A DNA stretch of 64,000 bases from Candidatus Iainarchaeum sp. (GTDB lineage: Archaea > Iainarchaeota > Iainarchaeia > Iainarchaeales > JAAZKV01), in NCBI GenBank assembly GCA_026397015.1, contig JAPLVR010000004.1:6126-70125 (forward strand), written 5' to 3'. The notes below the pieces were generated by a model. That model saw only the letters and a list, made by a program, of their open reading frames with translations. It was not told where the DNA came from and ran no database searches. The first letter of the stretch is position 1; each line of letters begins with the position of its first letter. Positions 43,569-62,654 of this stretch are shown piece after piece. The translations under genes were made by a program, and so were the position numbers.

Positions 43569-43588
43569 ACACAATTTCTTGGACATTT
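43569..43588 (+). repeat. 20-bp intergenic element ACACAATTTCTTGGACATTT, copy 1
   Basis: Exact match to 58124-58143 and 61984-62003. Confidence 0.85.
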
Positions 43589-43646
43589 GCGTCGGAGTTT
43601 TCCTGCACAGCATATAAAAACGTTTTCCACACTAATTTGCTTTTAT

Positions 43647-43949
43647 ATGAAAAGTGCGAAAAATGCAAAGAAGGGAAAGGAACTCCTGTTCATAAGCGTC
43701 ATCGGAAAGGACAAGAAGGGAATAGTTGCGACCATCTCGAATCACCTGTACAAAAACGGCATAAATATCGAGGACATAAACCAAAAGGTTATGGAAGGCT
43801 ACTTTGTAATGACGATGGTGGTTGATGCTAAGGATTCAAAGAAAAGCCTTGAAAAAATAAGGGAAGAGCTTGAAGAGGTCGGCAAAAAAATGAATGTGAT
43901 GGTGAGCATAAGGCACGAAAACATATTCAAAATGATGCATCGCATTTGA
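43647..43949 (+). CDS. ACT-domain protein
   Basis: ISVIGKDKKGIVATIS...INIEDINQ...FVMTMVVD...HENIFKMMHRI; typical partner of DUF711. Confidence 0.9.
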   Translation: MKSAKNAKKGKELLFISVIGKDKKGIVATISNHLYKNGINIEDINQKVMEGYFVMTMVVDAKDSKKSLEKIREELEEVGKKMNVMVSIRHENIFKMMHRI

Positions 43950-44076
43950 AGCAATAATTTTTTGCAGAATTTTTTTGGGATTTTTTGTAGGGTTTTTTTT
44001 ATTGGTTTATTGGTTGTTTTTTATTTTTTGGAGTTTGATTTTTGAATTTATTTTTTGTTTTTTGAGGTGTTAAGGA

Positions 44077-45435
44077 TTGACCATTTCACTGGAAGAGGTT
44101 TATGAAACTTCAAGCATGTTTCTGCACGACAACCTTGACATAAGAACGGTAACGCTCGGAATAAATCTGAAGGGCTGTATAGATTCGGATTTCCAAAAGT
44201 TCAGGAATAAAGTTTATAAAAAAATATTTTTGAACGGCAGAAAGTTAATAGCCGAGGCAAAAAAAGTCGAGGTTAAATACGGCGTTCCGATAGTGAATAA
44301 GCGCATTTCGGTAACGCCCATAAGCCTGATAATGGAAACCCATTGCACAAAGCAGAAATATTTGCAGATGGCGTTGACGCTCGACAGGGCGGCGAAAGAT
44401 TCCGGAATTGATTTTATCGGCGGCTTCGGAGCGTTCGTTCAAAAAGGAATGACAGAATCGGATGCTGTTTTGGTCGAGGCGTTGCCGGAAGTGCTTTCAA
44501 GAACCGACAGGATTTGTTCTTTCATAAATGCGGGTTCTAACGTTTCCGGGCTTAATCTCGATGCGGTCAACCTGATTGCCGAAATGCTAAAGAAAACTTC
44601 GAAGAAAACGAAGAACGGAATCGGTTGCGCAAAATTTGTTGTTTTTGTTAACGCGCCGGAAGACAATCCTTTTATGGCGGGCGCCTTCCATGGAATCGGC
44701 GAACCGGATTTTTCCCTCAACATAGGAATAAGCGGACCCGGCGTTGTAAGAAGCGTTATTGAAAAAAATAAGGATTGTGATTTGACAGGGCTTTCGGAAC
44801 TCGTGAAAAGGACTGTTTTCAAAATAACACGTGCCGGAGAACTGGTCGGAAGGGAGCTTGCCGAAAATATTAATGTGCCTTTTGGAGTTACCGATATTTC
44901 GCTGGCGCCGACAACAAGACCGGGAGATTCCGTTGCAAAAACGATTGAAGCATTTGGAATTGAAAGAATCGGGGCGCATGGTTCGACGCTTGCCCTTGCT
45001 CTTTTAATTGATGCCGTAAAAAAAGGCGGAGCGATGGCGAGCAGCAGTGTCGGCGGCTTAAGCGGAACATTCATTCCGATAAGCGAAGATTTGGGAATGA
45101 TTGAGGCTGTTCAAAAAGGCGCGCTGAGCCTGGACAAGCTTGAGGCATTTACAGCGGTGTGTTCGGTCGGCTTGGACATGTTTGCCGTTCCTGGAAGCAC
45201 CTCGGCGGAAACAATCGCCGCGATAATAGGCGATGAGCTTTCAATCGGAATAATGAACAACAAAACTACGGCGGTAAGAATAATTCCGGTTAACGGAAAA
45301 AAACCGGGGCAATTGGTTGAATTTGGCGGCCTCCTTGGAACGGCGCCCGTAATGAAAGTAAGCAAATTTTCTTCGGCAAAGTTCATGAGGCGCGGAGGAA
45401 GAATGCCCGCGCCGATAACTAGCATGCGCAACTGA
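44077..45435 (+). CDS. DUF711 / UPF0210 PFL-like-fold protein
   Basis: LDIRTVTLGINL, VNKRISVTP, EDNPFMAGAFHG, GGLSGTFIP.SED, CSVGLDM, GGLLG.AP. Confidence 0.9.
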   Translation: MTISLEEVYETSSMFLHDNLDIRTVTLGINLKGCIDSDFQKFRNKVYKKIFLNGRKLIAEAKKVEVKYGVPIVNKRISVTPISLIMETHCTKQKYLQMALTLDRAAKDSGIDFIGGFGAFVQKGMTESDAVLVEALPEVLSRTDRICSFINAGSNVSGLNLDAVNLIAEMLKKTSKKTKNGIGCAKFVVFVNAPEDNPFMAGAFHGIGEPDFSLNIGISGPGVVRSVIEKNKDCDLTGLSELVKRTVFKITRAGELVGRELAENINVPFGVTDISLAPTTRPGDSVAKTIEAFGIERIGAHGSTLALALLIDAVKKGGAMASSSVGGLSGTFIPISEDLGMIEAVQKGALSLDKLEAFTAVCSVGLDMFAVPGSTSAETIAAIIGDELSIGIMNNKTTAVRIIPVNGKKPGQLVEFGGLLGTAPVMKVSKFSSAKFMRRGGRMPAPITSMRN

Positions 45436-45497
45436 TTTGTTTGGTTTCTGGCGCATTGGTTAGTTTCTGACATTTAATTTGAAGCTTATCTTTTTCT

Positions 45498-46352
45498 TTA
45501 CCTTTTTCTAAACGCTTCATCAACAAAATCAATTGTTTTTTTCAGGCGACTAATTTGCCCGAGGATATTGTTCACTTCCGCATTAGTAAAATGTTCCCTG
45601 TTTTTTGAAACAAAATTTAGGAAGCTTTTCTGGAGCCCCATTTCCTGTTTCATTAGGGCGATTTCTTTTGCAACATCGAGTCTTCCGAATTTTGAGAGCG
45701 CCCTCCTCCCCATGGCGACTTTTTTTATTCCATCGAGGTGTTCGTCTTTTTGAACTTCAATATTTATGCCTTCAACTTCTTTTTCGGCGGCCGCAATATT
45801 TTTTGCCAGTCGTTTTGTTTTGAATGTCTGGCCTTCCTCAAGTTTTGTGACCTCGAGTTGCAGTTTCTGCAATTCGATATATTTCTCAAATAACGCTTTT
45901 CCAAGCCGATGGCGTACAACGCTGTTTTTAGGATTGACTTTAAGCCATTTGTTGTATTCGGAGATAGCAATCGAATATGCCTTGTCGGCTCTGAGCGCCC
46001 TCTTAACAAGCGAGTTAATGCTTATCACATTTTTTATCTGCGCGATTACAACTTCGGTAAACACCTCTTTTGGGCTAACCCCTTTTTCTCGCATTTCACG
46101 CATCCTTTCTCCCGCTTTTTGTGAAACATTAATGTCGTCAAGCAGGCGGTCTATTTCTTTATCGCCCATTTTTGACGCATTCTGCTTGAGGATGGAAAGT
46201 TTAAGTTTTCTGTCCCGATTAAGAAAAAGCCTTTGGCTTTTGTAGTCAGCCCTTCTGCTCAGTTCGGAGAGTTTTTTGCGCAGTTCGGCGGCCTTTTCCA
46301 GGGAATAGGGCGCACTATTTTTTTTCGGCGCGCGCTTTCGTTGGGGTTTCAT
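45498..46352 (-). CDS. Basic helical hypothetical protein, paralog of 55654..56535
   Basis: Start MKPQRKRAP; shares DYxxQRLFL and C-terminal motifs with the paralog. Confidence 0.7.
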   Translation of the reverse strand: MKPQRKRAPKKNSAPYSLEKAAELRKKLSELSRRADYKSQRLFLNRDRKLKLSILKQNASKMGDKEIDRLLDDINVSQKAGERMREMREKGVSPKEVFTEVVIAQIKNVISINSLVKRALRADKAYSIAISEYNKWLKVNPKNSVVRHRLGKALFEKYIELQKLQLEVTKLEEGQTFKTKRLAKNIAAAEKEVEGINIEVQKDEHLDGIKKVAMGRRALSKFGRLDVAKEIALMKQEMGLQKSFLNFVSKNREHFTNAEVNNILGQISRLKKTIDFVDEAFRKR

Positions 46353-46459
46353 CAGCAACTTGCATTGTTCAAAGTATATATAAATATCTTTCAAAAAATT
46401 TGGCAGATTTTTTTCAAAAAAAACAGAAGAAATAAAAACTCGGCGGGCTTATCTATGTC

Positions 46460-61464: not shown

Positions 61465-61980
61465 ATGGCTAATGGAAAATCACTGTTCACTGTTGTTGAC
61501 AAAAATGACATTTCAATAGGGGCAAAGGAAAAGGACGAAATCACTCCAAAAGACCTTTACCGAGTTGCAGCGCTTTGGGTAACAAACTCCAAAGGAGAGG
61601 TTTTATTGGCAAAAAGAGCGATGAGCAAGAAAAATAACCCTGGGAAGTGGGGCCCATCGGTCGCTGGCACTGTAGAAGCCGGCGAAACATATGAATCAAA
61701 TATTGTAAAAGAAATGTTCGAAGAAATCGGGCTTAAAGGCATAAAAATCGAGAAAGGGGGAAAAATACTGCGCTTCAACAAAGAAAATCAGTACAACTAT
61801 TTTTGCCAATGGTTCAAAGCAGAGGTTAACAAAGGAATAGGCGAGTTTGTCGTGGATGCTTCCGAGGTTGCGGAAATCAAATGGATTGGCAAAAAAGAAC
61901 TTGCAAAACTCATAGCAAAAAACTCGGAAAATTTTTTAGATTCGGTAAAGGAATGGTCCCAAAGTAAAATAAAATTTTAA
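61465..61980 (+). CDS. NUDIX hydrolase, IDI type 1-like subfamily
   Basis: VVDKND..IG, LLAKRAMSK...PGKW..SVAGTVEAGETY, KEMFEEIG. Confidence 0.85.
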   Translation: MANGKSLFTVVDKNDISIGAKEKDEITPKDLYRVAALWVTNSKGEVLLAKRAMSKKNNPGKWGPSVAGTVEAGETYESNIVKEMFEEIGLKGIKIEKGGKILRFNKENQYNYFCQWFKAEVNKGIGEFVVDASEVAEIKWIGKKELAKLIAKNSENFLDSVKEWSQSKIKF

Positions 61981-61983
61981 AAC

Positions 61984-62003
61984 ACACAATTTCTTGGACA
62001 TTT
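61984..62003 (+). repeat. 20-bp intergenic element, copy 4
   Basis: Exact copy, 3 nt after the NUDIX stop. Confidence 0.85.
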
Positions 62004-62120
62004 TTTGACGCTGGGTAGGGAAATAAATTTATTAACCAAGCTTGACGGCTTTTCCGGAATAAAAACAAAGTAATCCTTTCGCGCAAAAACTTTTAAACTG
62101 AAAGCAATATTCAACTAACC

Positions 62121-62603
62121 ATGTCAAAGCATTCCCTCAAGGTCGGAATCAGTTTCGGAGTGACATCAGGAATAATCACCACCCTCGGCCTGATATCAGG
62201 ATTAAGCGCGGAAACGCATTCAAAGCTGATTGTTCTCGGGGGAATAATGACGATAGCGATAGCTGATTCGCTGTCGGACGCCCTCGGGGTGCACGTTTCC
62301 GAGGAGTCCGAAGGGGTTCACGGCAACAAAGAGGTCTGGATTGCAACGGCCGCAACATTTTTCTCAAAACTCATTTTCACTCTAAGTTTTTTCTTCATAG
62401 TGCTTTTTTCGGAGCTTTCAACCGCGGTGCCAGTAAGCATCGCCTGGGGCCTGATTGTAATAAGCATAGTTAGCTTTCTGATAGCAAGGCAGGAAAAGAA
62501 AAAACCCTTTGGAGTAATCGCGGAGCACATATTAATCGCGATTGCAGTTGTAGTGGCAACAAATTACGCAGGCGGCTGGATAGCCGCCGCATTCGGCGCA
62601 TAA
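62121..62603 (+). CDS. VIT1/CCC1 family metal transporter
   Basis: FGVTSGIITTLGL, AIADSLSDALG.H.SEESE. Confidence 0.85.
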   Translation: MSKHSLKVGISFGVTSGIITTLGLISGLSAETHSKLIVLGGIMTIAIADSLSDALGVHVSEESEGVHGNKEVWIATAATFFSKLIFTLSFFFIVLFSELSTAVPVSIAWGLIVISIVSFLIARQEKKKPFGVIAEHILIAIAVVVATNYAGGWIAAAFGA

Positions 62604-62639
62604 AAAAATAATTTCCGGCTAAAAATCCAAAAAAGCATG

Positions 62640-62654
62640 AATTGTTGGACAATT
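62640..62654 (+). repeat. Palindromic variant of the TTGGACA element
   Basis: AATTGT-TGG-ACAATT, 36 nt after the VIT1 stop. Confidence 0.55.

Follow-up and report, generated by a model that had tools for sequence, protein, structure and literature searches.

An oriented intergenic motif of Iainarchaeota that converges on a dif-like palindrome: a candidate docking site for a polar barrier or boundary factor

Background

Ter sites, which are bound by Tus in Escherichia coli and by RTP in Bacillus subtilis, are asymmetric sequences of ~20-30 bp that occur in about 10-20 copies per genome, in one orientation per chromosome arm, with opposed clusters densest around the terminus and dif. The rtp gene, encoding a small winged-helix binder, lies beside opposed sites, and bound Ter complexes also stop RNA polymerase in a polar manner. 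Archaeal chromosomes are thought to end replication by simple fork collision, and we know of no polar protein-DNA barrier or long oriented chromosome motif described for archaea. Here we describe an oriented intergenic motif, ACACAATTTCTTGGACATTT in its 20-bp form, found in a 64,000-nucleotide stretch of a Candidatus Iainarchaeum sp. genome (GenBank assembly GCA_026397015.1, contig JAPLVR010000004.1, positions 6,126 to 70,125 of the forward strand; hereafter the window) and in related Iainarchaeota.

Two other archaeal systems are relevant to this comparison. In Sulfolobus, the lineage-specific small basic protein UBP binds the 11-bp motif ucm at many intergenic sites (329 peaks) and interacts with the replication machinery; polarity or gene-end preference is not mentioned in the sections of that report considered here (PMC12141716). 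The archaeal short polarized sequences (ASPS) are skewed words that point to dif (PMC2958812).

The Iainarchaeota motif keeps one orientation across hundreds of kb and switches from + to - at a palindrome that is a candidate XerA/dif-type site or operator. By linking motif polarity, gene order and conservation, we tentatively propose, with a probability of roughly 0.4, that a DNA-binding factor specific to this lineage and to this sequence docks on the motif and creates a polar barrier or boundary.

Methods

The genome that contains the window is referred to as G000, its contigs as C1 to C6 (the window lies on C4), and a sister species as G001; positions given without a contig are those of the window. 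G000 measures 0.9 Mb over six contigs and carries mevalonate-pathway genes, TFE and a 2-oxoacid oxidoreductase. Motif copies were scored with a position weight matrix (PWM) built from 48 intergenic copies, and the gene identities TspO, GIY-YIG, ferritin-like, CxxC, NUDIX, VIT1, GNAT and PspC are backed by Pfam/NCBIfam.

Results

Motif sequence and copies in the window

A mismatch scan of the window returned six matches to ACACAATTTCTTGGACATTT on the + strand at up to three mismatches, against a chance expectation of 0.02, and none of 100 shuffles reached six. Three are exact (43569, 58124, 61984), one has a single mismatch (58643) and two have three mismatches each (56595, 37341). This confirms the exact and one-mismatch copies listed by the first-pass annotation, which was made from the sequence of the window without database searches; the two core variants that it reported are also real, at 60129-60147 and 62635-62654. 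As aaaaa-ACACAATTTCTTGGACATTT-ttt, seven intergenic + copies span 43.5-62.7 kb, with protein genes in between and 500 to 13,000 bp from one copy to the next, and an eighth co-oriented copy lies at C4:71163 (= window 65038), ~1 kb past the window end. The copies are as follows, together with one coding look-alike.

43569-43588, + strand: motif copy, exact, PWM score 37.6; 67 nt past a methyltransferase stop and ~58 nt before the start of an ACT-domain gene (43647)
56595-56614, + strand: motif copy TCACAGTTTCTTGGACAGTT, PWM score 30.7; in a divergent region, ~60 nt upstream of TspO (56674) and of a minus-strand gene ending at ~56535
58124-58143, + strand: motif copy, exact, PWM score 41.0; 19 nt past a ferritin-like stop, with a Dus 3' remnant beginning 34 nt downstream
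58643-58662, + strand: motif copy, one mismatch, PWM score 38.6; between convergent CxxC (+) and M10 peptidase (-) genes
60129-60147, + strand: degenerate copy TCGCA-TTTGTTGGACACTT, one base shorter; in the 34-nt spacer between a convergent small membrane gene (+) and a 393-aa gene (-)
61984-62003, + strand: motif copy, exact, PWM score 40.9; 3 nt past a NUDIX stop
62635-62654, + strand: degenerate copy GCATGAATTGTTGGACAATT, PWM score 23.4; 31 nt past the VIT1 stop and 43 nt before a GNAT start
37341-37360, + strand: coding look-alike, not an element; within a porA-like 2-oxoacid:ferredoxin oxidoreductase gene (36730-37899)

Six copies follow the stop of a + gene, at 67, 19, 100, 1, 3 and 31 nt, and for these the distances and neighbouring genes named by the first-pass annotation are correct. 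The copy at 56595, which it overlooked, stands not 3' of a gene but upstream of TspO, in a divergent promoter region. We do not count the match at 37341 as an element since it lies inside a gene, where it mimics the motif with three mismatches, and recurs as coding sequence in G001, G014 and G020; being conserved, it adds one false copy per genome to naive motif scans.

The PWM resolves an A-tract at -5 to -1, a core ACACAATTTC(T/G)T(T/A)GGACATT, in which the two central positions are the least constrained, and T-rich bases at +19 to +22. The full motif comprises ~28 bp and is asymmetric (A-tract, ACACAATTTCTWGGACA, T-tract), with an invariant core ACAC-N8-GGACA. The T fraction after the motif reaches 0.79 at +21, while the upstream A-tract supplies a T-tract on the other strand. 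An archaeal intrinsic terminator has a T-tract of >=5 at transcript 3' ends; three of the window copies have only T2-T3. At a PWM score of at least 18, the genome-wide scan that had been suggested for G000 returned 17 sites, against 1 in the reversed genome.

The consensus holds no dyad symmetry, and the dyad AAWTGT-N3-ACAWTT proposed earlier is absent from it. No consistent RNA fold was found for the motif (z-scores -1.2 to +1.7; 0 kcal/mol for the 28-mer), and neither Rfam families nor tRNAs were found within the window. A tRNA origin of the motif was rejected, the best of 37 tRNAs leaving 7 mismatches to the 20-mer and contig C4 carrying no tRNA gene. A CRISPR array was likewise rejected on the irregular spacing of the copies (500 to 13,000 bp) and on spacers that are protein genes. 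An integron attC site would be a hairpin-forming inverted repeat of 57-141 bp, whereas the motif is 20-28 bp, asymmetric and unfolded, and the IntI-type recombinase expected of an integron array was not found among the ORFs (open reading frames) at 42-64 kb. The first-pass annotation had also seen no match to attC or a CRISPR repeat.

Polarity along the chromosome and its point of convergence

Runs of uniform orientation are evident on the longer contigs: G006:C1 (985 kb) reads ++ / ------ / +++++, and G003:C1 (946 kb) reads ++, eight -, a local + - pair at the locus of the protein P200 (see below), and +++. Other contigs read +++ / ----- (G008:C2, 158 kb), ++ / ------ (G020:C3, 98 kb) and ++++ (G003:C2 and G019:C7). 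In the first five genomes, orientation switches at 9 of 42 transitions (p=1.4e-4). Gene-strand bias in G000 is weak, hence the arm polarity is no by-product of gene orientation.

The palindrome at which orientation switches has the form TTATGTAT-N7-ATACATAA (TTATGT-N11-ACATAA), with 8-bp arms and a 7-bp spacer, and is highly specific among the loci examined (33 matches vs 1 in controls). A Xer/dif site has two inverted arms around a 6-8 bp spacer and a single functional copy at the terminus; of this palindrome two copies are present per genome, and G000 contains exactly two. The first, pal1 (C1:217239-217261), lies 22-44 nt upstream of the start of P200 and is syntenic with xerA across the order. 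The second, pal2 (C4:71069-71091), lies 944 nt past the window end, with the motif at C4:71163 next to it. In at least 10 genomes (G004, G005, G006, G008, G009, G012, G015, G021, G024 and G039) pal2 stands at the + to - switch, usually as palindrome, 72-78 nt, and innermost motif(+). Copy density peaks on both sides of this convergence point.

A gene for a free-standing protein with a single LAGLIDADG_1 domain lies at the end of the contig (C4:71792-72445, - strand), 1.7 kb past the window. Where present (only 12 of 41 related genomes), it usually sits between the innermost convergent copies, beside pal2, with a small basic ORF after it; pal2, motif and LAGLIDADG gene are arranged in G001 as in G000. 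Since these three features lie just past the window, the array inside it most likely represents the + flank of a zone on which motif polarity converges chromosome-wide, something that the window by itself could not reveal, and not the integron-like gene-capture site that a cassette array would imply. Two roles for the LAGLIDADG enzyme were rejected: as a general trans factor, its gene is found in 12/41 genomes vs at least 30/41 for the motif, and as the enzyme that targets the motif, it would call for a pseudo-palindromic site, which the motif is not.

Polarity relative to genes

Independent sites between same-strand genes are co-oriented with transcription in 27 cases and anti-oriented in 1. 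In a larger, partly redundant set the count is 45 to 3, and the upstream stop is at most 7 nt away in 20 of 78 copies. The distance to the next start codon varies between 16 nt, where nothing but a Shine-Dalgarno sequence intervenes, and more than 130 nt, which rules out an operator at a fixed promoter position. Approximately 10 copies lie between convergent genes and at least 7 in divergent promoter regions, and the minus-strand genes of the array never have a minus-oriented copy. Consequently, neither "3' element" nor "upstream element" alone fits every copy. With no RNA structure, and with copies in divergent promoter regions, the motif is more likely to act as DNA.

Conservation across the order

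The motif occurs, at up to two mismatches, in 30 of 41 genomes of the same order, one of uncultured DPANN archaea, with reversed-pattern controls giving ~0. A relaxed core pattern identifies 12-19 sites per family genome, almost all intergenic, against 0-1 per strand in controls (2 in G024), and distant families retain only ACAC-N8-GGACA. Every family examined has up to three copies at fixed places in one core locus, which reads aTrm56, tfe, motif, initiator tRNA-Met gene (tRNAiMet), a 144-aa winged helix-turn-helix (wHTH) gene, motif, P200 (reverse), palindrome, motif (reverse), PRC-barrel gene (reverse) and xerA (reverse). The same three junctions hold the motif in ~20 genomes, other families included, and no insertions at these copies were found across the whole order; these three copies are ancient. 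The tfe-proximal copy starts 0-4 nt past the tfe stop, and several genomes have tandem double motif sites upstream of P200.

P200 is a single-copy protein of ~200 aa found order-wide (C1:216615-217217, - strand, in G000; homologues in loci L104-L123), with 46-76% identity over most of the order and 34% in the most divergent family. It matched no Pfam or NCBIfam family and no PDB sequence, and a Foldseek comparison of its AlphaFold model (predicted local distance difference test score, pLDDT, 92) with the PDB gave no fold match (best E-value 0.1). The model displays a ferredoxin/RRM-like beta-alpha-beta-beta-alpha-beta N-terminal domain with invariant aromatic residues and a helical C-terminal domain. 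The wHTH protein (C1:216093-216527 in G000) gave only a sub-threshold PadR match. The xerA-like protein, with Phage_integrase and SAM-like domains, is the only tyrosine recombinase seen, and is encoded on contig C1.

Further features of the core locus were observed. The tfe-proximal motif lies 98-214 nt from the initiator tRNA-Met gene (loci L115-L123; C1:215268-215442 in G000), and in most genomes a short hairpin with a T-run stands 60-80 nt past this motif, before tRNAiMet. This tRNA carries A1:U72 and three G-C pairs in the anticodon stem, which are archaeal initiator features, and introns are present in some copies.

Outside the order the motif is essentially absent from what was searched: 28 single matches on viral contigs correspond to chance level, with no contig carrying several copies, and exact scans of metagenomes and GTDB gave few matches, all in Iainarchaeota save chance ones in bacteria. 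The motif is undescribed in the literature searched, where its words matched only primers by coincidence, and nothing relevant was found on Iainarchaeota motifs.

Discussion

A polar barrier or boundary

In the mechanism that we propose, a factor would dock on the double-stranded motif and, once bound, would block arrivals from one side, be they replication forks, RNA polymerase or both, as Tus/Ter and RTP/Ter do in bacteria and TTF-I/Reb1 does at eukaryotic rDNA. Two opposed clusters would then form a trap or boundary around the palindrome, the candidate XerA site. The + flank of the convergence zone would consist of the eight copies, all in one orientation, that lie in the window or shortly past its end, and the short genes interspersed among them, unrelated to one another, would be the variable accessory content usual for a region of this kind. 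Candidate binders are the wHTH protein (144 aa) and P200 (200 aa), both encoded between the oldest copies and chosen by position only. Such a polar barrier would account for the arm-specific orientation, the opposed clusters at the candidate XerA site, and the co-orientation with transcription. A bolder version, in which wHTH or P200 binds the motif and the opposed clusters act as a Tus/RTP-like fork trap around a XerA dif site, with polar transcription roadblocks at gene ends and no known archaeal counterpart, we consider doubtful.

A number of points weigh against this proposal. No homologue of Tus or RTP was found, the wHTH protein giving the PadR match below threshold and P200 no family or fold; the binder may be an analogous protein unrelated to either. 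The position after stop codons and the flanking T-tracts are explicable by a purely transcriptional role, and, to our knowledge, work on Sulfolobus points to replication termination in archaea that does not rely on fork traps. In G003 and G020 opposed copies converge with no detectable second palindrome. The distance between pal1 and pal2, from 15 kb (G039, G036) to more than 300 kb, is too variable for the two switch points to be simply an origin and a terminus, and cdc6 lies 25-100+ kb from the divergent switch and not at it, on which ground a replication origin at that switch was rejected. Contigs of near-chromosome length come from only two genomes. Finally, neighbouring site pairs counted by hand over all contigs are concordant in ~67 and discordant in ~20 cases, with the neighbours often close together and hence not independent, and ~7 disagreements in orientation between neighbouring sites have no explanation.

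A transcriptional boundary

The motif may instead be a purely transcriptional boundary, acting as DNA or as RNA in the 3' untranslated region (3' UTR) as a factor-assisted terminator or insulator at gene ends; its A- and T-tract flanks would give oligo-T signals on both strands, and chromosome polarity would be secondary or fortuitous. The tandem co-orientation of 27:1, the stop codon within 7 nt of 20/78 copies and the A-rich (-5 to -1) and T-rich (+19 to +22) flanks are all in keeping with this, and at convergent junctions one copy could serve both genes. A hairpin with a T-run 45-80 nt downstream of the motif, after tfe and PRC, suggests that the motif may lie in a 3' UTR, and the RRM-like N-terminal domain of P200 is rich in conserved aromatics. 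However, the motif is present at only ~15-20 of roughly 900 genes, forms no RNA structure, and occurs in at least 7 divergent promoter regions that receive no incoming transcript, while the minus-strand genes of the array have no minus-oriented copy. Runs of one orientation over hundreds of kb would, moreover, be unexpected given the weak gene-strand bias. We therefore consider this explanation unlikely. Of the 3'-UTR or termination signal that the first-pass annotation had offered as an option, the co-orientation and post-stop position stand; the divergent-promoter copies and the chromosome-scale polarity are left unexplained by it.

Gene content between copies and recombination

Gene content bears on a further explanation, that the motif is an att-like recombination site between copies of which modules of "gene + 3' motif" are inserted, deleted or exchanged, driven by the host XerA-like recombinase or by breaks from the neighbouring LAGLIDADG endonuclease. 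The features concerned are listed below.

56674-63514, both strands: accessory-gene stretch comprising TspO, GIY-YIG(-), ferritin-like, CxxC, M10 peptidase(-), small membrane protein, 393 aa(-), NUDIX, VIT1, GNAT and PspC(-)
58178-58285, + strand: start-less Dus 3' remnant, the last ~35 codons, with a 24/35 aa match to the C-terminus of G001 Dus

The region is rearranged relative to G001, and the two species have different genes in the intervals between motif copies. DNA identity is only ~70-80%, and other intergenic regions are too divergent for fine alignment. The spacer that contains the 58643 copy can otherwise be aligned with that of G001, which lacks the copy through a 17-nt indel, and the 60129 copy has no counterpart in G001. 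In G001 the Dus gene lies directly before the CxxC gene; the Dus remnant marks a rearrangement junction beside motif 58124 and shows that "ferritin-like + motif" replaced ~3.4 kb. From SAM synthetase to TspO, G001 has nothing that corresponds to the ~7.7 kb at 48.9-56.6 kb, a segment either elsewhere or absent in that species.

Several side observations concern the same regions. The intact Dus gene of G000 is inverted (51989-52795) and its C-terminus is more divergent, and 48900-56600 encodes several no-family proteins with K/R-rich N-termini (e.g. 54828-55628 and 55654-56535). On G001:C6 (loci L124, L125 and L219) a separate cluster of three to four copies, all in one orientation, shares a derived left half, ACGCTAWTTGTTGGACA, which suggests copying or homogenisation within the cluster. 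On C5 of G000 (345708-346609), within 1.6 kb of the contig end, an ArsM-like SAM methyltransferase gene (-) is bracketed by two + copies. Motif clusters occur within 5 kb of three of the 12 contig ends (C1, C4 and C5), hinting at assembly breaks in variable regions.

Exchange at the motif would explain why co-oriented direct repeats bound modules of 0.5-1.9 kb, some with a reversed gene (C5:345708/346590 with the ArsM-like gene; G008 L027), why G000 and G001 differ in the genes found between copies, and why each species has its own motif subtype. The 17-nt indel, the Dus remnant 34 nt from motif 58124, a NUDIX+motif junction common to G000 and G015 only, and a patchy LAGLIDADG gene (12/41) flanked by motif copies fit as well, and a motif of ~30 bits would need a copying mechanism to give rise to new copies. 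Against exchange, Pfam scans of the ORFs at 42-64 kb found no recombinase in the array, and no excision evidence was found. The core-locus copies are free of insertions across the order, the motif is neither dyad nor hairpin, and it is not enriched on viral contigs. The rearrangement junctions are offset from the motif by 20-35 nt, and the position of NUDIX with respect to pal2, the convergence point, is shared by G000 and G015, so that the gene may simply be syntenic. A single-motif LAGLIDADG enzyme should cut pseudo-palindromic sites, most motif-bearing genomes lack the gene, and variable accessory genes are expected near a terminus- or dif-like point anyway.

Recombination is therefore, in our judgement, distinctly unlikely. 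Presence of the motif at invariant core-gene junctions order-wide, with no recombinase and no hairpin or dyad, gives no support to gene capture, the first possibility raised by the first-pass annotation, as its primary nature. The cassette-like look of the array is genuine in that content differs from G001, with the indel and the Dus remnant; it is not accompanied by a recombinase, a hairpin or signs of excision. Taken as a whole, the earlier interpretation is partly supported, and gene capture, weakly supported, becomes a minor rival.

A guide for DNA translocation, or an operator

A polar motif could also steer a DNA translocase or a motor of the SMC (structural maintenance of chromosomes) type to the palindrome (XerA/dif) for dimer resolution or segregation, in the manner of FtsK-orienting polar sequences (KOPS). 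The motif points at the second palindrome from both sides, copy density is highest beside it, and xerA is linked to its sister palindrome. Yet the copies are far too few (~1 per 50-60 kb outside the cluster), the motif exceeds the length expected of a guide word, and its strict co-orientation with transcription would be left unexplained; a guide function is accordingly quite improbable.

An ordinary transcription-factor operator, e.g. of an iron or oxidative stress regulon (ferritin-like, VIT1, TspO, NUDIX), is very improbable: although the window genes beside the copies look thematically related, P200 has tandem double sites upstream in several genomes and the motif is conserved along with the adjoining wHTH and P200 genes, its neighbours in relatives belong to diverse families (aRF1, TruD, DapA, adenylate kinase, XPD, tfe, tRNAiMet), on which the regulon was rejected, start-codon and TATA distances run from 16 to >130 nt, ~10 copies stand where convergent genes end and no promoter is present, and chromosome-scale polarity would be unexpected of an operator. 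The same distances and the asymmetric consensus speak against the dimeric-regulator site named in the first-pass annotation, which had regarded copies at a fixed distance upstream of TATA boxes, with invariant gene order between them, as the signature of an ordinary factor site; distances were found to vary, and gene content to differ from G001.

Implications

The motif exhibits two layers of polarity, one relative to genes and one relative to chromosome arms that converge on a dif-like palindrome. If the fork trap were real, it would be the first in archaea and would have evolved independently of the bacterial ones. With an oligonucleotide, two candidate proteins and a recombinase, the system would offer a handle on termination, dimer resolution and the insulation of transcription units in minimal genomes. 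A convergence zone would also explain the gathering of accessory genes and of a homing-endonuclease gene in and beside the window, and it cautions that co-oriented repeats between small genes need not be integron-like cassettes.

Comparison with known systems

Integron attC sites, Acinetobacter pdif modules and tRNA-end arrays resemble the window in that co-oriented short repeats part accessory modules of one or two genes in a variable region. Unlike these, the motif has no hairpin or dyad, no integrase at the array and no tRNA-end origin, and it is also present at invariant core-gene junctions. KOPS and ASPS share a polarity switch at a Xer recombination site (a candidate site in Iainarchaeota), but are 4-8-mers in hundreds of copies, whereas the motif comprises 17-20 bp in 12-19 copies.

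Like ucm, the target of UBP in Sulfolobus, the motif occupies intergenic sites and would be bound as double-stranded DNA by a lineage-specific protein; ucm, however, is an 11-bp motif with 329 peaks, for which the sections considered mention neither polarity nor a preference for gene ends (PMC12141716).

The TTF-I, Reb1 and Sap1 sites of eukaryotic rDNA (Sal box) are likewise oriented motifs just past transcription units and upstream of promoters, co-oriented with transcription, and serve both as polar transcription terminators and as replication fork barriers, a dual role that the Iainarchaeota motif may share. Those sites are bound by Myb-type proteins at a single repeated locus, whereas the motif is dispersed on a prokaryotic chromosome with arm-scale polarity.

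Differences from Ter/Tus and Ter/RTP include the absence of a sequence or fold relative of Tus or RTP among our findings, copies that also lie far from the convergence point, a second motif locus where the local pair converges and the arms diverge, and a strict placement behind genes that is a feature of the motif and not of Ter. We know of no fork trap in archaea. Nevertheless, as in the Ter systems, the motif is long and asymmetric, its orientation is uniform by run, and in at least 10 genomes opposed copies meet at a dif-like palindrome.

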